64,000 nucleotides of DNA from Alphaproteobacteria bacterium. GTDB taxonomy: Bacteria; Pseudomonadota; Alphaproteobacteria; SMXQ01. Where the stretch lies: contig JAYQQF010000004.1 in NCBI GenBank assembly GCA_038145705.1, forward strand, positions 75,523 to 139,522, written 5' to 3'. Every line of letters begins with the position of its first letter. Within the stretch, counting starts at the first letter, position 1. A program made the position numbers and the translations under genes. Under the pieces are notes generated by a model, which had not been told where the DNA came from, searched no databases, and worked only from the letters and a program-made list of their open reading frames with translations. This document shows positions 3,357 through 60,813 of the stretch, piece after piece.

Positions 3357-4972
3357 GCGTTCGCCGAAAAGTCGATCACGTCGAAGCGCGCATCGCCGTC
3401 GCGCTCGATCTGTTCGATCAGGCCCTTTTCCCACGACAGGTAACGATGCATCGCCTCTTCCTGGCCGCTGGCGCGCTCGTAAGGACGCCAGAAGGCCTCG
3501 TCCTCGAGCTCGTCCAGAGGATCGCCGCGCCCGGTTTCCCACGGCAACTTTTCGCGGCGCCACGCGGCATTGCCGCCCGCCAGGACCTTGACGTTGCGGC
3601 CCAACGCCGCAACTTCCGGCGCGGCGAGGCGGGCAAGCGTTCCGTCCTCGCAGGTCAGCACGATGTCGCCCGGGGCCAGGCGCGAAAGACTTTCGGCAAA
3701 GCGCGAGCGGATGGCGAAACGCGCGCCCGGAATGTGGCCGCGCGCATAGGTCAGGCTGCGCGAAAGATCCAGCAGATGCACGCGGCCGCGCCCACGCATC
3801 TGGCTGACCGCCAGCATGCGCGGCGCCACGCTTTCGCAAGCGGCGCCGTCAAGACCCGCGACCTCGCCGCGGTCGGGGCCCGATGCCGTCGGGCCCGCCG
3901 AAACGCCGCCCGCCAGCACCGAGGCATCCCACCCCATCTGGCAGAGCCAGGCGGCGGCAAGGCGTGCGCGCACCCCGTCGTCGTCCACCACCACGACACG
4001 CGCGCCGAGGGTCGCCATGAACGCATCGGTCTTTTGCGTCAGCTGCACGCCGATGGCATGTCGGCTGCCGGCAAGGTGGCCCGCCTCGTATTCCTCGGGC
4101 AGGCGCACGTCGAAAACGTAGGTCGTGCGGCCAGCGTCGGCGCGCCAGCGTTCCAGTTCGGCGAAATCCACTTCGCGCACGCCCGCGCGTTCGGCGATCC
4201 GCGCAGCGCGGCCCTTTGCAATCTGCAAGGCCTCGGGCGACGGCGCGGGGGCCAGGCGCGACTGGTTGCGTTCCAGTTCATACCCCGCGAGGTGCCAGCC
4301 CATGGTCCCGTCCTCCAGCGCCACGACGCGGTTGGGCAGGCCCGCGTTGATCAGCGACTGGGCGCCGAGGATCGAGCGCGTGCGCCCGGCACAGTTGACC
4401 ACCACCGTGCGACCGGCATCGGGGGCAAGATCGTGGACGCGATAGACCAGTTCCGATACCGGGCAGTCGAGGGCGCCCGGAATGTTCATCATGCGAAACT
4501 CGTCCATCGGCCGCGAGTCGAGCACGACGAGATCGTCGCCCCGGTCCATCATGATGCGCAACTGGTGCGCGGTGACGTGCGGCGTAACGAGACGCAGTTC
4601 GACCAGTTCGCCGAAGGCCTTGGACGGCACGTTCATGCCGCCGAAGACCTCGAACCCGGCATCGCGCCATCCCGCCATGCCGTTTTCCAGTACGGCGACG
4701 TCTCTCCAGCCGAGAGCCGCAAGGCGCGCGCCCGCGCGTTCGGCCAGGTCCTCGCCCGCTCCGCCGTCCATGACGACGACCGTCACATCGCGCCTCGGCA
4801 CCAGCGACGGCGCCAGCAGTTCGAGCCGGCTGAGCGGGCAGGTCGAGGCGAAGAGCAGGTGACCCTCGGCATAGACCCCTTCCTCGCGCACATCGAGGAT
4901 GGCGAGTTCCCGCCCGGAAGCCACGGCGGCGATACAGTCCTTGAGGTCTGATGCGGAAATTTTATGTCTCAT
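3353..4972 (-). CDS. multi-domain rhodanese (four tandem rhodanese/sulfurtransferase domains)
   Basis: Four repeats of a rhodanese-like module (ILDVREEG..EGHL, VVLDSRP..G, VFDVRLPEEYEAGHLAGS, LLDLSRSL..GHIPGA), some with CxGRxRS-type active-site loops. Start taken at internal Met MRHKISASDL. Confidence 0.75.
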   Translation of the reverse strand: MRHKISASDLKDCIAAVASGRELAILDVREEGVYAEGHLLFASTCPLSRLELLAPSLVPRRDVTVVVMDGGAGEDLAERAGARLAALGWRDVAVLENGMAGWRDAGFEVFGGMNVPSKAFGELVELRLVTPHVTAHQLRIMMDRGDDLVVLDSRPMDEFRMMNIPGALDCPVSELVYRVHDLAPDAGRTVVVNCAGRTRSILGAQSLINAGLPNRVVALEDGTMGWHLAGYELERNQSRLAPAPSPEALQIAKGRAARIAERAGVREVDFAELERWRADAGRTTYVFDVRLPEEYEAGHLAGSRHAIGVQLTQKTDAFMATLGARVVVVDDDGVRARLAAAWLCQMGWDASVLAGGVSAGPTASGPDRGEVAGLDGAACESVAPRMLAVSQMRGRGRVHLLDLSRSLTYARGHIPGARFAIRSRFAESLSRLAPGDIVLTCEDGTLARLAAPEVAALGRNVKVLAGGNAAWRREKLPWETGRGDPLDELEDEAFWRPYERASGQEEAMHRYLSWEKGLIEQIERDGDARFDVIDFSANA

Positions 4973-5169: not shown

Positions 5170-6207
5170 ATGCGAATCCACTCCACCACAGTCACCACGA
5201 CGGCCGCCCGCCTTGGCGTGGCGACCGGCCTTGCCGCCGCCTTCGCGATCGGCGCCTATGCGGGGTCCGCCATTGCCGCGGAAAAGTTCCCGACCAAGGA
5301 AATCCAGATCATCAGCCATGCCGCGCCCGGCGGCGGCACCGACGTCACTGCGCGCATGATGATGATCCGCTCGCGACGCGAACTGGCGAAGGGCAACCCC
5401 GAATACAAGGACACCGGCGCCGTCATCAACGTCGTCTACAAGCGCGGCGGTTCTGGCAAGGTCGCTCATGAATACCTGATGTCGCGCCCGGCCGACGGCC
5501 ACACCCTGATCGCGCTGACCCAGACACACTTCTACACGATCGCTCTCGGCAAGTCGCCGCTGAAGGGCCCGGAACTGGTCGGCGTGGCGCGCGCCATGGA
5601 CGATCCGACCTTCATCGTCGTCGGCAAGAACAGCAAGTACAAGACGATCGAGGAACTGATCGCCGCCTCCAAGGACAAGCCGCTGAACTGGGGCGTGTCG
5701 CAGATCGGCGGCACCGAACACGTCGGCCTTGCACGTTTCGCCAAGGCGGCAGGCATCAAGTTCAAGGTCGTGCCCTTCGGCTCCGGCGGCAAGATGGTGC
5801 AGGCGCTGCTGTCTAACGCCATCGACGCGACCCTGCCGAACGTTTCGGAAGCCGGCGGCCAGATCGAGGACGGCACGGTTCGCCCGCTGCTGCTGCTCGA
5901 CAAGGCGCGGCTGCCTGCCTACAAGAACGTCCCGACCAGCCATGAAAAGGGCTGGGCGCTGACGGTCACCACCACCCGCGGCTACGCGGTCAAGGCCGGC
6001 ACGCCGCCGGAAGTGATCAAGGCGCTGGAAAAAGGCATCCTGTCCGCGATGAAGCACGATGTCTTCGCGGGCTACCTGCGCTCCTCGGGCCTCGATCCGA
6101 AGACCAGCCCGGCCGGCTCCAAGGTCTGGACCGACCAGATCCAGGAAGAGATCAAGATCGCCCGCGAAGCGCTGGGCGAGCTCGGCCTTCTCAAGAAGAA
6201 GAAATAA
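5170..6207 (+). CDS. tctC: tripartite tricarboxylate transporter substrate-binding protein TctC (Bug family), with C-terminal KKKK
   Basis: Signal peptide followed by ISHAAPGGGTDVTARMM (the TctC signature). It precedes tctB/tctA, has a GGGAGG ribosome-binding site, and ends in LLKKKK. Confidence 0.8.
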   Translation: MRIHSTTVTTTAARLGVATGLAAAFAIGAYAGSAIAAEKFPTKEIQIISHAAPGGGTDVTARMMMIRSRRELAKGNPEYKDTGAVINVVYKRGGSGKVAHEYLMSRPADGHTLIALTQTHFYTIALGKSPLKGPELVGVARAMDDPTFIVVGKNSKYKTIEELIAASKDKPLNWGVSQIGGTEHVGLARFAKAAGIKFKVVPFGSGGKMVQALLSNAIDATLPNVSEAGGQIEDGTVRPLLLLDKARLPAYKNVPTSHEKGWALTVTTTRGYAVKAGTPPEVIKALEKGILSAMKHDVFAGYLRSSGLDPKTSPAGSKVWTDQIQEEIKIAREALGELGLLKKKK

Positions 6208-6228: not shown

Positions 6229-6765
6229 GTGACCACCGGCAACGCCGGATCGACGGGTACGAAGGGCGCGCGCAAGAGCGCGCCCTTCGTTCACCGCACC
6301 GATCTCTGGATTACCATCATCATTCTCGTCGCCTGCGCGGCTCTCTGGTACGAGACCACGCGCTGGGACACCGTCGCCGCACAGCTGAGCCAGAATGTCC
6401 CGCCGACGTTCTTTCCGCGCATCATTCTGGGCTGCATCATGGCGATGTCGCTTTACCTGCCCTTTGAAAACTTCTTCAAGAAGAAGAAGGGCGCGGACCT
6501 CGATGAAGAACGGAGCAACAAGGTCGTTTCGATCACCTTCATCACGGCATTGGCGCTCGTTCTCATCGTCAGCCTGTTCGAATGGCTGGGCACCGACCTG
6601 AGCATGGTTCTCGCCTGCCTGCTGCTGCCGATCCTTTGGAACGAGCGGCGCCTCTGGGTGATCCTGCCCTTCGCCATCCTGTTCCCCCTCACCGTGCGGC
6701 TGATCTTCGTCAACGGCCTCAAGGTTCATTTCCTCCCCGGGCTCCTGGCCCCGATACTGGGATAG
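6229..6765 (+). CDS. tctB: TctB small membrane subunit of tripartite tricarboxylate transporter
   Basis: About 178 aa with 4 predicted TM helices, sitting between tctC and tctA. GTG start. Confidence 0.65.
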   Translation: MTTGNAGSTGTKGARKSAPFVHRTDLWITIIILVACAALWYETTRWDTVAAQLSQNVPPTFFPRIILGCIMAMSLYLPFENFFKKKKGADLDEERSNKVVSITFITALALVLIVSLFEWLGTDLSMVLACLLLPILWNERRLWVILPFAILFPLTVRLIFVNGLKVHFLPGLLAPILG

Positions 6766-6774
6766 CATCAGACC

Positions 6775-8286
6775 ATGGAACCGATTCTCGAGGGCATCGG
6801 CCTCATCCTCGTGCCCTACCATTTCTTCCTGATCCTGGTGGGCGTGCTGCTCGGCGTGCTCGTCGGCGCGCTGCCCGGCCTGTCGTCGACCATGGCCGTC
6901 GCCCTGCTGCTGCCGTTCACGCTGCAACTGCCGCCAATCCCGGCCATCGCCATGATGGCGGCGCTCTATTGCGCGGGCACCTTCGGCGGCTCGATCACCG
7001 CCATCCTGATCAACACCCCGGGCGCGCCGCCCGCGGTGGCGACGGCGCTCGACGGCTATCCGCTCGCCCAGAAGGGCGAGGCCGGACGCGCGCTCGGCAT
7101 CGCCGCGGTGTCGTCGGTCGTCGGCGGCATGTTCTCGCTGGTGGTGTTCATCCTGGCGGCACCGCTGCTCGCCAAGGTCGCGCTGTCGTTCCGCCCGCCC
7201 GAGTATTTCGCCCTGTCGCTGTTCGGCCTGTCGATGCTGGCCTCCATTTCCGGCAAGTCGTCGCTCAGGAACCTGATCGCCGGCGCCTTCGGCGTGCTGG
7301 TCTCGACCATCGGCGTGCACCTGACCACCGGCGTCGAGCGCTTCGTGTTCGGCGTGTCCGAATTCGTCGAAGGCATCAGCTTCGTGCCCGTGCTCATCGG
7401 TCTGTTCGCCATGGGCGAGCTGCTCAACCAGTCGCAGCGGCTCAACGAACATGTCGAGCGCATCAAGTCGGTCGCCATCAAGCTGCCGAGCTGGGCCGAG
7501 ATCGTGAAGCTGCGCTGGGTCATGCTGCGCTCGTCCATCATCGGCACCTTCATCGGCATTCTGCCCGCCGAAGGCTCCACCGTCGCCGCCATCATCGGCT
7601 ACAACGAGGCCAAGCGCTGGTCCAAGAACAAGTCGGAATTCGGCAAGGGCGCCATCGAAGGCATCGCCGGTCCGGAAGCCGCCAACAACGCCGCCACCGG
7701 CGGCGCCATGGTGCCGACACTGGCGCTCGGCATTCCGGGCTCGGGCACCACGGCGATCATCCTCGCCGCGCTGATGGTGCACGGCTTCCGTCCGGGCCCC
7801 TACCTGGTGCAGAACACGCCGCATTTCGTCTACGCGATCTTCACGGCGATGTTCCTCGCCAACATCCTGTTCCTGGTGATCGGCCTGCCGGGCGCCAAGC
7901 TGTTCGCGCGCATCACGCTGGTCAAGCGCCAGCTTTTGTGGCCCGCGGTGTTCGTGTTCTCGATGATCGGCGCCTACGCCTATCATCAGTCGGTGTTCGA
8001 CGTCTGGGTGATGCTGATCGCGGGCCTGCTCGGTTTCGTCATGCTGCGCCACGGCTTCGGCCCGGCGCCCTTCGTCATGGGACTGATCCTTGGCCGCCTC
8101 GTCGAGGAATTCTGGTCCCAGTCGATGATCATCTTCGACAACAACTGGTTCCGTTTCTTCGAAAGCTGGATCGTCGACCTGTTCCTGTTCTTCACCCTGC
8201 TCGGCTTCTTCGGACCGCTGATCTTCAAGGGCATCAACAGGATGGTCAGCCGCATGAAACCCGAAGGCCGCGTGCTGGAAGACTGA
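6775..8286 (+). CDS. tctA: TctA large membrane subunit of tripartite tricarboxylate transporter
   Basis: About 500-aa polytopic membrane protein with GAPPAVATALDGYPL and LALGIPGSGTTAIIL, both characteristic of TctA. Confidence 0.85.
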   Translation: MEPILEGIGLILVPYHFFLILVGVLLGVLVGALPGLSSTMAVALLLPFTLQLPPIPAIAMMAALYCAGTFGGSITAILINTPGAPPAVATALDGYPLAQKGEAGRALGIAAVSSVVGGMFSLVVFILAAPLLAKVALSFRPPEYFALSLFGLSMLASISGKSSLRNLIAGAFGVLVSTIGVHLTTGVERFVFGVSEFVEGISFVPVLIGLFAMGELLNQSQRLNEHVERIKSVAIKLPSWAEIVKLRWVMLRSSIIGTFIGILPAEGSTVAAIIGYNEAKRWSKNKSEFGKGAIEGIAGPEAANNAATGGAMVPTLALGIPGSGTTAIILAALMVHGFRPGPYLVQNTPHFVYAIFTAMFLANILFLVIGLPGAKLFARITLVKRQLLWPAVFVFSMIGAYAYHQSVFDVWVMLIAGLLGFVMLRHGFGPAPFVMGLILGRLVEEFWSQSMIIFDNNWFRFFESWIVDLFLFFTLLGFFGPLIFKGINRMVSRMKPEGRVLED

Positions 8287-11543: not shown

Positions 11544-12695
11544 TCAGTAGGAGCGCGGCAGGCCGAGCACGTGCTCGGCCACGTAGGACAGAATCATGTT
11601 GGTCGAGATCGGCGCGGTGCGGTAAAGCCGCGCCTCGCGGAACTTGCGCTCGACGTCGAATTCCTCGGCGAAGCCGTAGCCGCCGAAGGTCTGCATGCAG
11701 GTGTCCGCCGCTTCCCACGATGCTTCCGAGGCGAGAAGCTTCGCAAGGTTCGCTTCCTCGCCGCAGCGCTCGCCCGCATCGAACAGGGCGGCGGCGCGTT
11801 CCACCATCAGGGCGGCGGCGCGCATCTGCGCGTAGGCGCGCGCGATCGGGAACTGCACGCCCTGGTTCTGGCCGATGGGACGGTTGAAGACCCTGCGGGT
11901 TTTCGCGTAATCGCCGGCGCGCGCCACGAACCACCGCGCATCGCCGATGCATTCGGCCCCGATCAGAATGCGCTCGGCATTCATGCCGTCGAGGATGTAG
12001 CGGAAGCCCTTGCCCTCCTCGCCGATCAGGTTGGCGGCGGGCACGCGCAGGTTGTCGATGAACACCTCGCAGGTGGCGTGGTTGATCATCGTCGGAATGG
12101 GCCGGATCTCAACGCCGTTGCCGCGCGCTTCGCGCAGATCGACGATGAACACGGAGAGGCCCTCGGTCCGGCTCGGCGCGTCTTCCTTCGCCGTCGTGCG
12201 CGCCAGCAGCAGCAGCAGGTCGGAATGCTCCGCCCGCGACGTCCACACCTTGGAGCCGTTGACGACGTAATGATCCCCGTCCCTGACCGCGCGCGTGCGC
12301 AGCGAAAGGGTATCGGTGCCGCTTTCGGGTTCGGTCACGCCGAAGGCCTGAAGACGAAGCCGCCCGGCGGCGATCTCGGGCAGATAAGATTTCTTCTGGG
12401 CGTCCGATCCATGCCGCAGGATCGTGCCCATCGTGTACATCTGGGCATGCGCTGCGGCGCCGTTGCAGCCGGACGCCTGGATTTCCTCCATGATCGCCGC
12501 GGCCTCCCTGAGGCCGAGGCCGGACCCGCCGTAGGCTTCCGGGATCAGGCAGGCGAGCCAGCCGCCCGTCGTCAGCGCATCGACGAACTCGCGCGGATAG
12601 CTGCGCGCGCGGTCGTGCTCGCGCCAGTATTCGCCCGGAAAACCGGCACAGAGCGCGCGAATTTGCTCGCGGATTTCGGAGAAGTCTCCGCTCAT
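11544..12695 (-). CDS. acyl-CoA dehydrogenase family protein
   Basis: Carries TEPESGTD, FGGYGF and C-terminal ARLYRTAPISTNMILSYVAEHVLGL. Start at internal Met MSGDFSEI, which overlaps the upstream gene's stop as ATGA. Confidence 0.85.
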   Translation of the reverse strand: MSGDFSEIREQIRALCAGFPGEYWREHDRARSYPREFVDALTTGGWLACLIPEAYGGSGLGLREAAAIMEEIQASGCNGAAAHAQMYTMGTILRHGSDAQKKSYLPEIAAGRLRLQAFGVTEPESGTDTLSLRTRAVRDGDHYVVNGSKVWTSRAEHSDLLLLLARTTAKEDAPSRTEGLSVFIVDLREARGNGVEIRPIPTMINHATCEVFIDNLRVPAANLIGEEGKGFRYILDGMNAERILIGAECIGDARWFVARAGDYAKTRRVFNRPIGQNQGVQFPIARAYAQMRAAALMVERAAALFDAGERCGEEANLAKLLASEASWEAADTCMQTFGGYGFAEEFDVERKFREARLYRTAPISTNMILSYVAEHVLGLPRSY

Positions 12696-21715: not shown

Positions 21716-23026
21716 ATGAAAATCGTCCGGAAAATACGTAACTATTCTATGGCAGTGCTTGCCATGACGTCTGGTTTTGCTTTGGCAGCCCATGCCGATG
21801 CAATTTCTGACTTCTACAAAGGCAAGGATATCGTGGTCTATGTCGGCTCCGGCCCCGGGGGCGGGTACGACACCTACGCCCGCATGATGGGCCGCCACAT
21901 GGGCCGCCACATCCCAAGCAACCCCAACTTCATCGTCAAGAACATGGATGGCGCGGGTTCGATCATCGCTGCCAACTATGTCTATAACGTCGCCCCCCAG
22001 GACGGCACCGTGATCGCGGCGTTGCAGCGCAACGCACCCATCGTGCAGATCATGGGCCAGAAGGGCCCGAAGTTCGAGGCGACCAAGTTCAACTGGCTCG
22101 GCAGCTTCAACAACGAAGTCGGCATCATTGCCGTTGCCAAGCGGACCGGCGTCAAGAAGTTCGAGGACCTGTACGGAAAGGAAGTGCTGTTCGGCTCTAC
22201 CGGCCCGAACGACACGGAATTCTATCCTGCGCTGATCGCCAACACGCTGGCGGCGAAGGTCCGCCTGATCAAGGGCTATCCGTCCACGCCGCCGACCCAT
22301 CTCGCGATGGAGCGCGGCGAGGTCGATGCAATCAGCCAGTCCTGGGCGTCCTTCACGCACCAGTCGAACCTCTATTCGAAGGGCGAGATGGTGCTGCTGG
22401 CCCAGCTGTCGCTGAAGCCGCTGCCCGAACTCAAGGCCAAGGGCGTACCGCTGCTGATGGATCTCGTCGACGAGAAGCACCTGCAGCCCGGGTACACCAA
22501 GGAGCAGGTTCAGACACTCTACCGCCTGCTGATGGCAACCAAGACGATGGGCCGTCCCTTCGCGCTTGGCCCCAAGGTTCCGGCCGACAAGGTCAAGGTT
22601 CTGCGTACCGCCTTCAACAAGACGACCGAAGACAAGAAGTTCGTCGATGAGGCCAACAAGCAGAGCCGCGACCTCAGCCTCGTCACCGGCGATGAAATCC
22701 AGGACATCGTCGAGAAAATGGCCTCGGCTCCCAAGGAGGTTCTTGAAAAGCTCGAATACGTGAGCCAGTGGCACGGCCCGGTCAAGACCGCCAAGGTCGA
22801 GATTCCGAAGCACACCGGCAAGATCACCAAGATCGAAAAAGGTGGGCGCAAGATCACCGTCGATGCCGAAGGCAAGAAGGTATCGGCGAAGATTTCCGGC
22901 TCGCGCACCAAGATCAAGGTGGGCGGCAAGGCCGCCAAGCGTTCGGCATTCAAGGAAGGCATGACGTGTTCGATCAGCCTGCCGCCCGGCTCCAAGGAAG
23001 CCACGGCAGTCGACTGCAAGGGCTGA
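21716..23026 (+). CDS. TctC/Bug-like periplasmic solute-binding protein paralogue with about 85-aa Lys-rich C-terminal extension
   Basis: Signal peptide, DFYKGKDIVVYVGSGPGGGYDTYARMMGRHMG (Bug-like phosphate/carboxylate clamp), then an extra C-terminal domain HGPVKTAKVEIPK...CSISLPPGSKEATAVDCKG. Family assignment is distant. Confidence 0.55.
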   Translation: MKIVRKIRNYSMAVLAMTSGFALAAHADAISDFYKGKDIVVYVGSGPGGGYDTYARMMGRHMGRHIPSNPNFIVKNMDGAGSIIAANYVYNVAPQDGTVIAALQRNAPIVQIMGQKGPKFEATKFNWLGSFNNEVGIIAVAKRTGVKKFEDLYGKEVLFGSTGPNDTEFYPALIANTLAAKVRLIKGYPSTPPTHLAMERGEVDAISQSWASFTHQSNLYSKGEMVLLAQLSLKPLPELKAKGVPLLMDLVDEKHLQPGYTKEQVQTLYRLLMATKTMGRPFALGPKVPADKVKVLRTAFNKTTEDKKFVDEANKQSRDLSLVTGDEIQDIVEKMASAPKEVLEKLEYVSQWHGPVKTAKVEIPKHTGKITKIEKGGRKITVDAEGKKVSAKISGSRTKIKVGGKAAKRSAFKEGMTCSISLPPGSKEATAVDCKG

Positions 23027-23199: not shown

Positions 23200-24507
23200 A
23201 TGCGTTTCACCCACATCATGACCGCTGCTGCAGCCCTGTGCGGCATGTTTGCAGCAGGCCCTGCCTCTGCCGATGCCATTGCCGATTTCTACAAGGGCAA
23301 GCGTATCCAGTTGCTGGTCGGTTCCGGCCCGGGCGGCGGCTACGACGTCTATGCGCGCATGCTGTCGCGCCACATGGGCCGCCATATCCCCGGCAACCCG
23401 GGCTTCCTCGTGAAGAACATGGAAGGCGCCGGCTCGATCGTCATGGCGAACTACGTCTTCAACGTCGCGCCCAAGGACGGCTCCGTGATCGCCGGCATGC
23501 AGCGCAACGCGGCGATGGCCGAGTTGATGGGCCAGAAGGGTCCGAAGTTCAAGTCGGTCGAACTCAACTGGCTGGGCAGCCTTGCCGACGAACCGGGCGC
23601 CTGCGCCATTGCCACGCGCACCAACGTCAAGTCGTTCGAAGAAGTCTTCACCCGCACCTTCATCATGGGTGGCACGGGCCCGAACGACACCGAAATCAAC
23701 CCGGCGCTCATCAATAACGCGCTCGGCGGCAAGTTCCGCCTGATCAAGGGCTATCCCTCGACGCCGCCTATCCACCTCGCGATCGAGCGCGGTGAAGTGG
23801 ACGGCATCTGCCAGTCTTGGGCGTCGCTCAGCGATCAGGGCGGCCCGATGATCCGTGCGGGCACGCTGAAGCCGATCATCCAGCTGACCATCAAGCCGGT
23901 GCCTGAACTCTCCAAGATGGGCGTGCCGACCATTTTCGACGTGATCAAGACCGGCAAGCACCTCGGTGCCGGCGTCACCCAGGAAGAGGCTTCCGCCTAC
24001 TTCCAGATCCTGATGGGCGTGCGCGTCATGGGTCGCCCGTTCGCGATGGCGGCAAAGGTCCCGGCCGACCGCGTCAAGGCGATGCGCGTGGCTTTCGATG
24101 CCACCGCCAAGGACGCCCAGTTCCAGGCAGAAGCGAAGAAACTCAAGCGTGACGTGGACCTCATCACCGGCGACGAAATCCAGAAGATCGTCGCCGAAAT
24201 GGCGGCCCAGCCCAAGTCGGCGCTGGCCAAGCTCGACGACATGCTGAAGTTCAAGGGCCCCACCCAGACCGCCAAGGTCGAACAGCCCAAGTTCTCGGGC
24301 AAGATCTCGAAGGTCATCGAGGGCGGGCGCAAGATCGCGCTCAGCGTCGGCGGCAAGGACGTGCAGACCGGCATTTCCGGTTCGCGCACCAAGATCACCG
24401 TCGCCGGCAAGGCGGCCAACCGCAGCGCTTTCAAGGAAGGCATGGAGTGCAACGTCACCCTGCCGAACGAAGGCGCCAAGGAAGCCGCCAACGTGGACTG
24501 CAAGTAG
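23200..24507 (+). CDS. TctC/Bug-like periplasmic solute-binding protein paralogue with the same Lys-rich C-terminal extension
   Basis: Tandem paralogue of the previous gene: ADFYKGKRIQLLVGSGPGGGYDVYARMLSRHMG, C-terminal FKGPTQTAKVEQPK...CNVTLPNEGAKEAANVDCK. GGGAG ribosome-binding site. Confidence 0.55.
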   Translation: MRFTHIMTAAAALCGMFAAGPASADAIADFYKGKRIQLLVGSGPGGGYDVYARMLSRHMGRHIPGNPGFLVKNMEGAGSIVMANYVFNVAPKDGSVIAGMQRNAAMAELMGQKGPKFKSVELNWLGSLADEPGACAIATRTNVKSFEEVFTRTFIMGGTGPNDTEINPALINNALGGKFRLIKGYPSTPPIHLAIERGEVDGICQSWASLSDQGGPMIRAGTLKPIIQLTIKPVPELSKMGVPTIFDVIKTGKHLGAGVTQEEASAYFQILMGVRVMGRPFAMAAKVPADRVKAMRVAFDATAKDAQFQAEAKKLKRDVDLITGDEIQKIVAEMAAQPKSALAKLDDMLKFKGPTQTAKVEQPKFSGKISKVIEGGRKIALSVGGKDVQTGISGSRTKITVAGKAANRSAFKEGMECNVTLPNEGAKEAANVDCK

Positions 24508-36464: not shown

Positions 36465-36646
36465 GGTCCGTCGCACCTGCCCTGTTCTGAATGTTTGATA
36501 CAGGATAGGCCAAGCCGGGGGCCGGGCAAAGGCCCGCCCGCGGCAGGACTGCAAAATCCAGTTGCGCGATGCCGGGCGACGGCAGCAAACTCCCGCCAAA
36601 ACAGGGCCCCAAGACCCCGGATCAACTCTTCCCAGACGAGGCAATC

Positions 36647-37657
36647 ATGATTTCCCTCCGTATCCTCGGCGCCGCAGCGGCGGCGTCCGTCTTCTTCTGT
36701 GCGGCACAGGGCGCTGCCCTCGCCCAGGACTTCAAGGGCAAGACCGTCAGGGTCATCGTCGGGTTCTCCCCAGGCGGCGGCTACGACGCCTATGGCCGCC
36801 TGATCGCGCGCCACATCGGCAAGCAGATCGACGGCAAGCCCACGGTCATCGTGCAGAACATGCCCGGTGCGGGTTCGATGACGGCGATCCGCTATCTCGA
36901 CGCGGGCGGGCCCAAGGACGGCACCGCCATGACGATCTTCAATCCGGGCCTGATCACCCAGTCGCTCACGGACCCGAAGAAGGCGCCGATCGACTTCACC
37001 AAGCTGCGCTTCATAGGCTCGGCCTCGTCCGATATCCGGCTCTGCTACGCCTGGGGCGCGACCGGCATCAAGTCGATGGACGATTTCCTCAAGCGTCCGC
37101 AGATCATCATGGGCGGCACCACGTCCGGCTCTTCGGCCTACGTGAACGGCGCGCTGCTGCGCAACATGTTCGGCGCCAAAATCAAGCACGTGCTGGGCTA
37201 TCCCGGCTCGGCCGAAATGCGCATCGCAATCGAGCGCGGCGAACTTGAAGCCGACTGCGGCGCATGGGGTTCGACGCCCCAGTCCTGGATCAAGGACAAA
37301 AAGATCAACATGCTGGTGCGCTTCTCCAAGGCCTCCGCGCCCGACATGCCGCAGATGCCCTACATCATGGATTTCGCCAAAGGAGCTGAACAGCGCCAGA
37401 TCCTGAACGTCATCCTGGCGCCGAGCGAGATCGGCCGGCCCTTCGTCCAGTCAGCGAAGGTCCCCGCGCAGGCGCTCTCCACCCTGCGCAAGGCGTTTGT
37501 CGCCACGGTCAAGGACAAGGCATTCATGGCCGAAGCCGACAAGGGCAACCGCGAAATCATCGGCCCGATGAGCGGCGAGGAAGCCGAAGCGGCCGTTCGC
37601 GAGATTTATGCCACCCCCAAGGCGGTCATCGCCAAGGTGGGCGGCATGATCAAATAA
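36647..37657 (+). CDS. TctC/Bug-like periplasmic solute-binding protein paralogue
   Basis: Signal peptide followed by DFKGKTVRVIVGFSPGGGYDAYGRLIARHIG. About 336 aa, no C-terminal extension. Confidence 0.55.
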   Translation: MISLRILGAAAAASVFFCAAQGAALAQDFKGKTVRVIVGFSPGGGYDAYGRLIARHIGKQIDGKPTVIVQNMPGAGSMTAIRYLDAGGPKDGTAMTIFNPGLITQSLTDPKKAPIDFTKLRFIGSASSDIRLCYAWGATGIKSMDDFLKRPQIIMGGTTSGSSAYVNGALLRNMFGAKIKHVLGYPGSAEMRIAIERGELEADCGAWGSTPQSWIKDKKINMLVRFSKASAPDMPQMPYIMDFAKGAEQRQILNVILAPSEIGRPFVQSAKVPAQALSTLRKAFVATVKDKAFMAEADKGNREIIGPMSGEEAEAAVREIYATPKAVIAKVGGMIK

Positions 37658-57912: not shown

Positions 57913-58980
57913 TTACTTGCTCTTCTTCTTTTTCTTGGAGACCGCGGGCGGCCAGAGCTTCGCCGCGACCTTCACGATGTCCTTGGGCGACGCATAGGCC
58001 TTCTTCAGCGCCACCGCGATTTCGGCGCCGGTCATCGGATCGGGCGTGATGTGCATCTTGCCCGCGTCGGCGAGGAACTTCGGATCCTTCATGGTGTCGT
58101 CGAAGGCCTTGCGCAGCGCCTTGACCAGATACTGCGGCACACCTGGCGGGAACAGGTAGGGGCGGCCCACGTTGTTCTTCACCGAAAGAACCTCGAGCGC
58201 CTTCTTGTGATCTGGATTGGTCACGTATTCGGACAGCAGCGGCACGTCGGGAAGCTGCTTGATCCGTTTCGGCGCATCCTGCACGAGGAAACGGATCTTC
58301 TTTTCCCTGAGCCAGCCGGGATCGGCCGCTTCATAGGTGTCGTAGGAGAAGCCGCAGATGCCCTCGACCTCACCGCGCTCGACGGCTAGGCGCATGCCGC
58401 GGGTGTTATAGCCGGAGATCACCTTGAACTTGGTGCCGAGCAGCGTGTTCAGCATCAGCGGCGTCTTCGCCGAATTGCCGGAAAGGCCCGTTGTAGATAC
58501 GCGCACCTCCTGCTTCTTGACGTCCTCGATGGTCTTGACCGGGCTCGTGTGCCAGATCATGCAAGTGTTGTACTGGGTGGTGATCGAACCGATCCATTCG
58601 AACTTGGTCGAGTCGAACTGCGCCCGGTTGTTGCCGAGCAGCGGCTCGAGCAGGTTGGTGTTGTACGTCATACCCATCACCGAACCGTCGCGGGGCGCCA
58701 CGTTGTAGAGCCAGTTGGTGCCGCGAATGCCGCTGGCACCCGGCATGTTCTGGTTGATCATGCTGGGCTTGCCGGGAACATGATTGCCGATGTGGCGCGA
58801 CAACAGACGCGAATAGGTGTCATAGCCGCCGCCCGCGCCGGAAACGATGGTCATCGTCAGGTTCTTGCCCTTGTAGAAGGCCGCGGCCGATTGGGCCTGG
58901 GCCGGCGACGCCGCGCCCAAGGCCAGGCCGACGGCCAGCGCCGTTGTCCCCAGAAATACGGTTTTCGAGTGTGTTTTCAT
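57913..58980 (-). CDS. TctC/Bug-like periplasmic solute-binding protein paralogue with C-terminal KKKKKSK
   Basis: Signal peptide, AFYKGKNLTMTIVSGAGGGYDTYSRLLSRHIG. Start set at internal Met MKTHSK by residue counting from the ORF-track end. Confidence 0.55.
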   Translation of the reverse strand: MKTHSKTVFLGTTALAVGLALGAASPAQAQSAAAFYKGKNLTMTIVSGAGGGYDTYSRLLSRHIGNHVPGKPSMINQNMPGASGIRGTNWLYNVAPRDGSVMGMTYNTNLLEPLLGNNRAQFDSTKFEWIGSITTQYNTCMIWHTSPVKTIEDVKKQEVRVSTTGLSGNSAKTPLMLNTLLGTKFKVISGYNTRGMRLAVERGEVEGICGFSYDTYEAADPGWLREKKIRFLVQDAPKRIKQLPDVPLLSEYVTNPDHKKALEVLSVKNNVGRPYLFPPGVPQYLVKALRKAFDDTMKDPKFLADAGKMHITPDPMTGAEIAVALKKAYASPKDIVKVAAKLWPPAVSKKKKKSK

Positions 58981-59279
58981 GCTTTGCTCCCGGTGAAACG
59001 CCCTGATTTGCGTTGTTATTGGACTGGGTTGTTCTTGTTGTTCTTCGTTTTTCTCCAAGGGCTTGGGTGCCAATGGAAATCACCTGCCGGCCGCGAAGGG
59101 CCAGCTTACGCTCGGTCATGTTATGGAAATTCTATCCGCCGCCCCCCGATGAGTCGAGGCTGCTATTTTCGCAGAGAACAGGGCTTATGGCGTAGTGCGC
59201 GCGGGCACCGCCACCGGGCTGCCAATAGGCCCGGCAGGCGGACGAAGGCCGCGAAATCACCCCCCTTGCGCGGGCGCTT

Positions 59280-60344
59280 CTACTCTTCTTTCTTCTTCTT
59301 TTTCTTCTTTTTCTTCTTCTGCGTAATCGCGCTGATTTTCTGAACGATATCGTCCGGGGTTTCGGCAAGGTCGGCGACGACCTTCGTCAGTTCCTCGCCC
59401 GTCAGCGCGGTAATCACCAGCCCCATCTTCCTGCTTTCCGCGATGAAAGCCGGGTCCGCCATCGTGGCGTCGAAGGCACGGCGCAAAGCATTCACGCGTG
59501 CCGCCGGAACACCGGGGGGCGCGGCGATAGGACGCCCCAGTTCGGTACTTGAGAAAAAGAACGCAAGGGTCTGGCGCTGGTCCTTGGTCTTTACATAGTC
59601 GAAAACGCTGGGCGCCCCCAGTCCCGGCACCCTTTTCTGCTCGAGATTGAAAAGCGGGATCAAGTCGCCTTTCTTCTGCCAACCGGGATTGGTGCTTTCC
59701 AGCCCCGCGATCGTCTGACATATCCCTTCGACTTCGCCCTTCTCGATCGCAAATACGACGTTCTGCGCGCCCTGATATCCCTCGATGACACGGAACTTCA
59801 TGCCAAGCACGCCCCTGAGAACGACCGGGGTGTTGCTGACCGTGGTGCCGATGCCGGAACCTCCGACGATCAGCTCTCGCTCGAACAGGTCCTCGGCCTT
59901 CTGGACCTTGGCGCCCTTCCGGGCCACGCAGACACGGTTGGTCAGCTCCGGGCTGCCGATCCAGTTCATATCCCTGGTGTTGAACTTGACCGCGGGATGG
60001 TTGAGCAGGGCCTGTGTCGGGATGTTTCGCGAAAAGATCGCGATGGTGGTCCCGTCCCGGGGGGCGCGGTTGAACAGGTGGTTCGTCGCCGTTATCCCGC
60101 CCGCGCCGGGCATGTTGACCGCCACGATGTTCGGCGTGCCGGGAATTTTCTTTCCCATGTGACGGCCGATGACCCGGGCCCATTGGTCGTAACTGCCGCC
60201 CGCCGAGGTTCCGATAATGAACTGGATGTTCTTGTCCTTGTAGAACCGGGCGATTTCATCCTTGGCGGCGTCGGCAGCGGATACGGGCGGCGCGATGACA
60301 GCGGCAAACGCAGCGGCCAAGGCGATGCTAGAGAGTGTTTTCAT
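59280..60344 (-). CDS. TctC/Bug-like periplasmic solute-binding protein paralogue with C-terminal K10-EE tail
   Basis: Signal peptide, RFYKDKNIQFIIGTSAGGSYDQWARVIGRHMG, ends in ITQKKKKKKKKKKEE. GGGGGAGGG ribosome-binding site. Start at internal Met MKTLSS. Confidence 0.55.
   Translation of the reverse strand: MKTLSSIALAAAFAAVIAPPVSAADAAKDEIARFYKDKNIQFIIGTSAGGSYDQWARVIGRHMGKKIPGTPNIVAVNMPGAGGITATNHLFNRAPRDGTTIAIFSRNIPTQALLNHPAVKFNTRDMNWIGSPELTNRVCVARKGAKVQKAEDLFERELIVGGSGIGTTVSNTPVVLRGVLGMKFRVIEGYQGAQNVVFAIEKGEVEGICQTIAGLESTNPGWQKKGDLIPLFNLEQKRVPGLGAPSVFDYVKTKDQRQTLAFFFSSTELGRPIAAPPGVPAARVNALRRAFDATMADPAFIAESRKMGLVITALTGEELTKVVADLAETPDDIVQKISAITQKKKKKKKKKKEE
59283..59321. repeat. polypyrimidine/(CTT)n-like simple-sequence tract encoding the poly-Lys tail
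   Basis: ctcttctttcttcttctttttcttctttttcttcttctg, about 39 nt of uninterrupted pyrimidines on the top strand. Confidence 0.6.
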
Positions 60345-60393: not shown

Positions 60394-60813
60394 TCAGCCG
60401 CGCTCACGCAACTGATCGAAGCCGTTTTCGGAAAGATCGATGTTGTTGCCATCGGGATCGGTTATGCGAACCTCGGCGTAAGGACGGTCGGCCGGGCGCG
60501 GTGCCGGTTCATCCAGTCCCCATTCCTTGATCTGGTCGCCGACATCGTCGCGGCTGTCGACATGAAAGCCGATATGGTTGAGCCCGACCGGCTTGCCTTC
60601 GGCTTTGTTCTTCAGCAACGCCAGCGTGATCGTACCGTCGGTCATGAAGGTCGATCCGTTCGGGCTCTGGTGCACGATTTTCATGTCGAAAACCTCGCCG
60701 TAGAACTTGGCGAGTTTGGCCGGATCGAGCGTGACGATCGCAATGTGACGGAGCTTGCGCATGCGGTTCGAACCGCTGGTCCGGGCGCTCTCCGCGTTCT
60801 GGGTCTGTGTCAT
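60394..60813 (-). CDS. VOC-family (glyoxalase/bleomycin-resistance/extradiol-dioxygenase fold) protein
   Basis: RHIAIVTLDPAKLAKFYGEVFDM..LNHIGFHVD. GGGAGGAAAAT-ATG ribosome-binding site. Confidence 0.7.
   Translation of the reverse strand: MTQTQNAESARTSGSNRMRKLRHIAIVTLDPAKLAKFYGEVFDMKIVHQSPNGSTFMTDGTITLALLKNKAEGKPVGLNHIGFHVDSRDDVGDQIKEWGLDEPAPRPADRPYAEVRITDPDGNNIDLSENGFDQLRERG

Follow-up and report, generated by a model that had tools for sequence, protein, structure and literature searches.

Poly-lysine tails on TctC/Bug-type binding proteins of an alphaproteobacterium: probably a cationic appendage rather than a genetic switch

Why should a periplasmic binding protein end in ten consecutive lysines? 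The question is raised by the gene at 59280..60344 of a 64,000-nucleotide (nt) stretch of an alphaproteobacterial contig, hereafter the window, whose product belongs to the TctC/Bug family of solute-binding proteins (SBPs) and finishes with SAITQKKKKKKKKKKEE, i.e., SAITQ-K10-EE followed by the stop codon, as read from both the open reading frame (ORF) listing and the sequence. An earlier note on this DNA had reported that three binding proteins of the window end in oligo-lysine (K10-EE, KKKKKSK, and KKKK) and that the membrane subunit TctB carries an internal KKKK, and both observations were borne out by the sequence and its ORFs. It had also proposed that the tract encoding the tail could make the terminus phase variable or cause ribosomes to slide. 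From the evidence given below, the tail probably functions as a cationic appendage, which may tether the receptor to a membrane, rather than as a genetic switch.

The tailed receptors and their relatives

By sequence and fold, the tailed proteins are ordinary TctC/Bug members. The K10-EE protein matched Pfam PF03401 (TctC) with 38.5 bits (cut-off 27, E = 1e-9), and its AlphaFold2 (AF2) model, built from a 22-sequence alignment, had a mean predicted local distance difference test (pLDDT) score of 86 and a predicted template modelling (pTM) score of 0.79. When the model was compared with the PDB using Foldseek, the best 17 matches were all TctC/Bug proteins, with E values from 1e-17 to 7e-13, and included TBP (8hk9), TphC (7ndr), TctC of Polaromonas (4x9t), AdpC (5oei), BugD (2f5x), MatC, Bug27, and BugE. 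The operon-encoded TctC at 5170..6207 matched PF03401 with 86.7 bits (E = 2e-24), and the second orphan receptor, at 57913..58980, which ends in PPAVSKKKKKSK and the stop codon, scored 23.8 bits (E = 4e-5), just below the 27-bit cut-off; its homologues are annotated as TctC, and the protein matched our custom family hidden Markov model (HMM). No useful family was found in NCBIfam for the two orphan proteins. The signal peptides, read directly from the sequence, have a hydrophobic core followed by the cleavage motif VSA-A in the K10-EE protein and by AQA-Q and AIA-A in the other two tailed proteins, with neither a lipobox cysteine nor a twin-arginine motif. The Pfam match, the fold, and the signal peptide thus agree with the earlier assignment of the tailed proteins to the Bug/TctC-type periplasmic receptors. 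A Shine-Dalgarno sequence, GGGGGAGGGA, lies upstream of the ATG of 59280..60344, and all three tailed genes have one of the GGAG type at their start. The exact product of 59280..60344 is present in public collections. In its AF2 model, the final helix spans residues 331-341, and residues 345-354, in the tail, form a coil with pLDDT below 50; K10, at codons 343-352 of 354, therefore qualifies as a polybasic motif, defined as at least five basic residues in a disordered segment.

Chance does not account for these endings. Lysine makes up 3.7% of the residues encoded by the 53 window ORFs, and four runs of at least four lysines were observed against 0.04 expected; the probability of K10 at a given site is P ~5e-15, and a chance origin of the lysine runs in the window is excluded. 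We then extended the count to 80 genome loci, which together with the window gave 929 ORFs under conservative calling. A run of at least four lysines within the last 10 residues was present in 8 of the 129 TctC-family ORFs and in none of the 800 others (Fisher P = 1e-7), a comparison that carries an ascertainment bias because the loci were picked by TctC homology, with most of each locus consisting of flanking DNA. Analysis of every frame of 1.79 Mb of retrieved DNA yielded 16 distinct runs of at least five lysine codons, all of them in TctC-family genes and all 0-3 codons before the stop; one of the 16 had escaped the family HMM and is the truncated C-terminal end of a TctC-family gene. Arginine is twice as common as lysine in the proteome, yet the tails use lysine exclusively.

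The tails recur among relatives of the three receptors, with lengths of K3-K11 across the three TctC subfamilies. Homologues of the K10-EE protein (family 1) at 59-80% identity carry K5-K9 tails, with ends such as KKRKK, K6, PKPK8Q, LK9N, EK8D, and KPK8SE, and remoter homologues are tail-less and end in MRELTK. In family 2, that of 57913..58980, a run of at least three lysines follows a conserved KLWPPAVP motif in 48 of the 120 homologues listed, the longest being K9; a metagenome scan for this family, whose matches were mostly distant relatives, added at least three extra tails. Homologues of the operon TctC (family 3) read ELGLL and then K1 to K5. Tail-less relatives have a single K straight after the same motif (KLWPPAVPK-stop and ELGLLK-stop), and tail-less members nearly always finish in a polar or charged residue. 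Further tailed TctC lineages were found in the flanking DNA of the loci, ending in PPPKKKKKKSSN (locus L167), GAKKKKKKKKAE (L175), LCK11SA (L141), and KRKAKKKKKSG (L012). Several tails can occur in one metagenome-assembled genome (MAG): WHSO01 encodes three family-1 paralogues with K8, K8, and K11, and CAVTBD01 at least four tailed paralogues. Downstream of a K7-tailed orthologue (P0134), positions 11649..14242 of L175 encode a transposase of the IS1595 family and a Cas2-like protein, a context unlike that of the window.

Encoding and length of the tract

The last codons of 59280..60344 read CAG AAG AAG AAA AAG AAG AAA AAG AAG AAG AAA GAA GAG TAG. The earlier note had described an uninterrupted polypyrimidine tract of 39 nt on the opposite strand; the run is indeed uninterrupted, but it measures 38 nt, the 39-letter string having taken in the closing g. 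Tandem Repeats Finder (TRF) resolved 59284..59318 into 3.8 copies of a 9-nt unit with 96% match.

To see how such tails are written, we analyzed the codons of 18 distinct tail DNAs, which contain 136 lysine codons. Of these tail codons, 30% were AAA, compared with 21% of the lysine codons in the remainder of those genes (P = 0.03). The two codons are interleaved: AAA-AAA neighbours were observed once against 8.2 expected, none of 17 tails contained four or more consecutive AAG against 7.5 expected, and successive AAA codons were spaced by one, two, or three AAG in 22 of 23 cases. Shuffling of the codon order gave P ~1e-4 or less. In 16 of the tails the A-run measured 5 nt; the other two had runs of 3 and 8 nt. 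The tail with the 8-nt run, at 4048..4074 of L170 (protein P0187), is the sole one with adjacent AAA codons (AAA AAA AAT), and the exact protein is still found on 17 contigs. Several tails are higher-order repeats, namely (AAGAAA)n, (AAGAAGAAA)n, and (AAGAAGAAGAAA)n. This codon pattern has two readings: either the tails grew as composite units were duplicated in frame, or slippery sequence was selected against. Since the irregular spacings never reach 0 nor exceed 3, some selection is favoured. In this respect the tails are the reverse of what a contingency locus or a site of ribosome sliding would show, and they provide a clean natural case of long poly-lysine encoded without slippery poly(A) or perfect trinucleotide repeats.

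Length was next compared among close lineages, as the earlier note had proposed for orthologues and strains, and the comparison showed that orthologues keep their tails while tract length varies. The 90%-identity cluster of the 59280..60344 protein contains K10EE, K10E, and K9EE, and ten other clusters at 90% identity or more behaved similarly, with, e.g., K7/K8/K9/K11, K6-K8, K5-K8, K8/K9, and K4-K6. Within these clusters, the length always changed by whole codons and the tail was never lost. The K9EE tract DNA was identical in four independent assemblies (NCBI, two from the European Nucleotide Archive, and one from the Joint Genome Institute), the window tract was identical to that of a Logan assembly, and the exact proteins P0011 and P0187 were present on 13 and 17 contigs, respectively; minor within-population variants are invisible in assemblies of this kind. 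Tail length thus evolves fast between lineages, without sign of on/off switching. The earlier suggestion that length changes could either tune the tail or shift the frame holds in its first half, on an evolutionary scale (K9/K10, K7-K11, K6-K8, and K5-K8), and fails in its second, the changes being of whole codons only.

A phase-variable contingency tract, or a programmed ribosome-sliding site, that gives alternative C-termini would be in line with the 38-nt polypurine/polypyrimidine run, its trinucleotide and 9-nt periodicity, and the differences in length between lineages. A shift of frame would even swap the polycation for a polyanion: read one frame away (-1/+2, the end of ORF 59257..60183), positions 59257..59320 give EEEKEEKEEERRVEAPAQGG and a stop. 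This polyanionic variant was not seen among the sequences compared. However, every difference in length corresponds to a multiple of 3 nt, independent assemblies of a lineage agree in their tracts, and the repeats are interrupted, no perfect repeat exceeding three units. Moreover, the tract lies in the last ~13 codons, and a frameshift there alters the tail only and cannot switch the protein off. With regard to sliding, five consecutive A allowed some extra lysines in a starved in vitro system, and robust sliding was reported at A11, with little at A9-A10 (PMC4363877). The A-runs of the window tract reach 5 nt against the ~11 needed, those of 17 of the 18 tails do not exceed 5 nt, and AAA-AAA pairs are avoided. 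Both phase variation and ribosome sliding, as raised in the earlier note, were rejected on these grounds, and we regard a switch of either kind as highly improbable.

Possible roles of a cationic C-terminus

In part of the family, the tail is replaced by another basic module. Fourteen of the 120 family-1 homologues listed (412-423 residues; P0023, P0025, P0030, P0100, and others) carry a basic domain instead of the tail, and two tandem genes of the window encode proteins of this type (Table 1). The extension is ~75-84 residues long and beta-rich, with two conserved cysteines and a net charge of +7 to +24 across homologues; a typical sequence is GKKVSAKISGSRTKIKVGGKAAKRSAFKEGMTCSISLPPGSKEATAVDCKG. 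It had no match in Pfam, where only sub-threshold similarities to DUF3060 and, in distant relatives or repeats, to CusF/DUF1344 were detected. A search among 1.84 billion representative sequences found 212 relatives at E <= 1e-3. The length of 23 of the 150 matches listed was 401-440 residues, the size of a full TctC plus the domain, and many of the 11 shorter matches inspected were C-terminal ends or fragments of TctC-type proteins. A single-sequence AlphaFold model of the 21716..23026 protein had a pLDDT of 36 and was unusable. The domain looks like an undescribed accessory domain of receptors of the tripartite tricarboxylate transporter (TTT) systems. Since closely related receptors have at this position a lysine tail or, alternatively, a very basic folded module, positive C-terminal charge would be what is selected, and sequence comparison thus suggests selection for a cationic C-terminal appendage.

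Gram-negative periplasmic binding proteins are treated as freely diffusing shuttles. The sequences and the AF2 model show a genuine, translated, and disordered polycation on a TctC/Bug receptor with a Sec signal peptide, and one that is conserved, confined to this family in the DNA analyzed, and stably encoded. The reading that we prefer, tentatively and with confidence somewhat short of even, is that this tail is maintained by selection and acts as an electrostatic tether. Tethering of the tailed receptors by charge is a plausible hypothesis, to which the restriction of tails to one family, their repeated occurrence, and the basic domain found in their place lend indirect support. Tails would grow from the usual single or double terminal lysine by in-frame duplication of 1- to 4-codon units, and selection would keep them in a number of TctC subfamilies, the lineages concerned being uncultured and for the most part alphaproteobacterial. 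The tail would then hold the receptor non-covalently on anionic periplasmic surfaces, chiefly the outward side of the inner membrane, which bears phosphatidylglycerol and cardiolipin and is the site of TctAB, and ligand delivery would become a two-dimensional search, as with lipid-anchored Gram-positive binding proteins. Tail length would set the affinity, and the interleaved AAG/AAA coding would keep the tract stable and its translation faithful, as expected of a structural feature and not of a switch. For the binding of pentalysine to weakly anionic bilayers, a value of about -12 kJ/mol has been reported (PMC4372444). If the periplasm is taken as a ~20-nm slab between two leaflets, the effective lipid concentration would be, by our own order-of-magnitude extrapolation, a few tenths molar, and at that concentration K5 would be roughly estimated to be largely, and K10 almost entirely, surface-bound, with salt and Mg2+ modifying these values. 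A broader proposal, that cationic appendages of either kind (the K5-K11 tail or the ~75-residue two-Cys domain) represent an undescribed, reversible mode of tethering TTT receptors in which length serves as an affinity dial, is possible but more doubtful.

Several observations weigh against a selected tether, in addition to the bias of the census mentioned above. The tail is labile: parsimony on neighbour-joining trees implied that a tail of at least four lysines had been gained or lost no fewer than 7, 12, and 6 times in the three families, at least 25 times in total. Some close orthologues are tail-less, as in family 1, where P0004-P0009 (66-73% identity) carry only KK or nothing, and the benefit of the tail must then be conditional or small. 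Exclusive use of lysine is what AAG/AAA slippage would yield without selection, the families natively end in K, so that a slippage seed could explain the family specificity, and the regular interleaving could be due in part to the duplication of units like AAGAAGAAA and not to selection. The ionic strength of the periplasm and its Mg2+ could weaken binding.

Some of these points lead to a serious rival, a neutral slippage origin, in which the tail is a low-complexity by-product: slippage occasionally expands the one or two terminal AAG lysine codons, the free and disordered C-terminus tolerates any length, and there is no function. This would explain why tail-less relatives end in one K after the same motif, why gains and losses are frequent and length drifts within clusters of at least 90% identity, why arginine, although twice as frequent in the proteome, is unused, and why the window tract has a tandem 9-nt structure; it also fits the lack of a tail-core charge correlation in sister pairs, described below. 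On the other hand, none of those clusters has lost its tail, the family-1 clade has kept its K5-K9 almost pure while the cores diverged by 35-40%, and tails arose in at least five TctC lineages and in no other family of the 1.79 Mb. Perfect repeats would be expected in many neutral microsatellites, and the scarcity of AAG runs and AAA pairs reported above speaks against this origin. That homologues have a folded, highly basic domain where the tail would be suggests that charge is under selection. Taken together, this origin seems to us possible, though on the whole doubtful.

The same evidence for selection would equally support a cationic appendage with another role, such as docking of the receptor to a sensor kinase or to TctA/TctB through their acidic periplasmic loops, attachment to anionic periplasmic glucans or to peptidoglycan, electrostatic capture of carboxylate ligands, or shielding of an apolar C-terminus from periplasmic proteases that are specific for C-termini. 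The substrates of TTT systems are carboxylates (PMC5812351), and the mature cores of the four TctC proteins at 5170..6207, 36569..37657, 57913..58980, and 59280..60344 are themselves basic, with pI 9.4-9.7 and net charges of +7 to +14, tails excluded. Furthermore, tail charge correlated positively with core charge in the three families (rho 0.26-0.62). The correlation vanished in sister-pair contrasts, indicating a lineage effect. Charge compensation, in which the tail would neutralize an acidic core, was rejected, given the basic cores and the positive sign of the correlation. Another role is also favoured by the almost invariably polar or charged ends of tail-less members. For shielding from proteases, one terminal lysine should suffice. 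Tails are found on operon-encoded TctC and orphans alike, in subfamilies with presumably different ligands, and no candidate acidic partner was found; we consider another role of this kind unlikely.

Braun's lipoprotein (Lpp) is joined to peptidoglycan through its C-terminal lysine by an L,D-transpeptidase. By analogy, the epsilon-amines of the tail lysines might act as L,D-transpeptidase acceptors, and two of the three window tails do end in lysine. However, the K10 tail ends in EE, many others end in Q, N, D, SE, or AE, and fixing a shuttle receptor to the sacculus would hinder delivery to TctAB; to covalent attachment we give hardly any credence.

If electrostatic tethering is correct, part of the large, mostly orphan TctC/Bug repertoire would work at a surface, and the "soluble" binding proteins of many uncultured Alphaproteobacteria would be membrane-associated receptors. 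Such a change of view would matter for the question of how a few TctAB channels can serve dozens of orphan receptors, for the kinetics of uptake where substrates are dilute, and for the behaviour of purified or engineered proteins, e.g., the terephthalate-binding TctC proteins used in plastic-degradation work. If the tails turn out to be neutral, they would still be a caution against reading such tracts as phase-variation switches.

Genomic context and known systems

Table 1. Coordinates of the tailed receptors, their sequence elements, and related genes in the window.
Feature	Position	Strand	Basis and remarks
Operon TctC, 345 residues, ends ELGLLKKKK	5170..6207	+	ORF, Pfam; K4 at 6193..6204
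TctB membrane subunit	6229..6765	+	Pfam PF07331; internal KKKK at residues 84-87
Presumed TctA, large TTT membrane subunit	6775..8286	+	Inferred from position and hydrophobic sequence
TctC-family protein with ~84-residue basic two-Cys C-terminal domain, no tail	21716..23026	+	Domain 22772..23023, net charge +13
Tandem paralogue with the same type of basic two-Cys C-terminal domain	23200..24507	+	Domain about 24253..24504, net charge +7
Fourth TctC-like binding protein, no poly-lysine tail, ends VGGMIK	36569..37657	+	PF03401 E = 2e-4, below cut-off; custom family HMM
Second orphan TctC-family binding protein, 355 residues, K5-S-K end	57913..58980	-	ORF; lysine run 57922..57936
TctC/Bug-family periplasmic SBP, orphan, 354 residues, K10-EE end	59280..60344	-	ORF, Pfam PF03401, AF2 model, Foldseek
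Two terminal Glu codons and stop, GAA GAG TAG	59280..59288	-	Sequence; close strains end K10-E or K9-EE
Uninterrupted polypyrimidine tract, 38 nt (coding strand polypurine)	59283..59320	+	Sequence
Poly-lysine tail, ten codons (AAG AAG AAA AAG AAG AAA AAG AAG AAG AAA)	59289..59318	-	Sequence
Predicted Sec signal peptide, MKTLSSIALAAAFAAVIAPPVSA, then ADAAKDE	60276..60344	-	Sequence read directly; residues 1-21 with pLDDT below 50

The features discussed here are collected in Table 1. The TctC gene at 5170..6207 is followed by tctB and by the gene of a large membrane protein, forming a tctCBA-like operon, whereas no tctAB genes adjoin 57913..58980 or 59280..60344, which encode orphan Bug-type receptors. 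The KKKK of TctB (nt 6478..6489) differs from the tails in its coding, which is a plain row of four AAG without interleaved AAA. It is located between the second and third transmembrane (TM) segments predicted from the hydropathy profile and is followed by an acidic patch, GADLDEE. Judging from this position and the positive-inside rule, the KKKK probably belongs to a normal cytoplasmic loop and has no connection with the tails, and it was rejected as part of the tail phenomenon. The tail-less receptor at 36569..37657 provides a contrast to the tailed ones within the same genome. The closest species-level genome is that of an uncultured alphaproteobacterial MAG, GCA_030831315.1, with 96% amino-acid identity.

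The two long-tailed genes are flanked by a VOC/glyoxalase gene and a cytochrome c gene. A VOC/glyoxalase gene directly upstream of the family-1 tailed receptor was observed in the window (60394..60813, minus strand) and also in L001 (3324..3746), L005 (242..661), and L173 (1123..1539), and the conservation of this gene order may be a clue to the pathway of the substrate. The two tailed genes are separated by a spacer of 299 nt, within which a tandem repeat with a 9-10-nt unit occupies 59028..59054 (~2.8 copies, GTTGTTCTTC on the plus strand); it is purine-rich on the coding strand and lies upstream of the start codon of 57913..58980. A scan for terminators and promoters around the tailed genes gave nothing above the shuffled expectation.

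Comparison with known systems places the receptors among the TctC/Bug SBPs, such as BugD (2f5x), BugE (2dvz), Bug27 (2qpq), AdpC (5oei), MatC (6hke), TphC (7ndr), and TBP (8hk9), with which they share the family, the two-lobed fold, and the signal peptide. As known for Bug proteins, one window copy lies in a tctCBA-like operon and others are orphans (PMC5812351). They differ from these SBPs in the K4-K11 tail or, in homologues, the ~75-residue basic two-Cys domain, and in an unusually basic core (pI ~9.5). Neither the tail nor the basic domain is mentioned in a review of TTT systems (PMC5812351) or in the full-text literature searched, the coverage of which is incomplete, so that absence is not proof.

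With the contingency loci of Neisseria, Haemophilus, and Campylobacter, the tails have in common a short-unit coding repeat in an envelope protein, with length varying between lineages. They differ in that their repeats are interrupted, change only in frame, lie at the extreme 3' position, and are identical across samples of a lineage. Iterated lysine codons are also the substrate of ribosome sliding on poly(A) (Koutmou et al. 2015, PMC4363877), and elongation on the consecutive lysines of the tails may be slow. Unlike sliding tracts, the window tails have a maximum A-run of 5 nt against ~11, and they avoid consecutive AAA, matching the genome-wide under-representation of consecutive AAA codons (PMC4363877).

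The polybasic membrane-targeting regions, i.e., the hexalysine of K-Ras4B, the effector domain of MARCKS, and lysine peptides, have the same disordered cluster of 5-10 lysines at a terminus. The regions of K-Ras4B and MARCKS are cytosolic, eukaryotic, and usually paired with a lipid anchor. The window tail, in contrast, would be periplasmic and carries no lipid modification, and its membrane binding would follow from physical chemistry, by which lysine clusters are predicted to bind anionic lipids in a salt-sensitive manner, the more so the more lysines they contain (PMC4372444). Finally, the lipoprotein- or TM-anchored SBPs of Gram-positive bacteria and spirochaetes offer the analogy that we propose for a receptor kept at the membrane beside its transporter (PMC5812351). 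There, the anchor is a covalent lipid or a TM helix and is N-terminal, whereas the window tail would provide a reversible, electrostatic, and C-terminal one.

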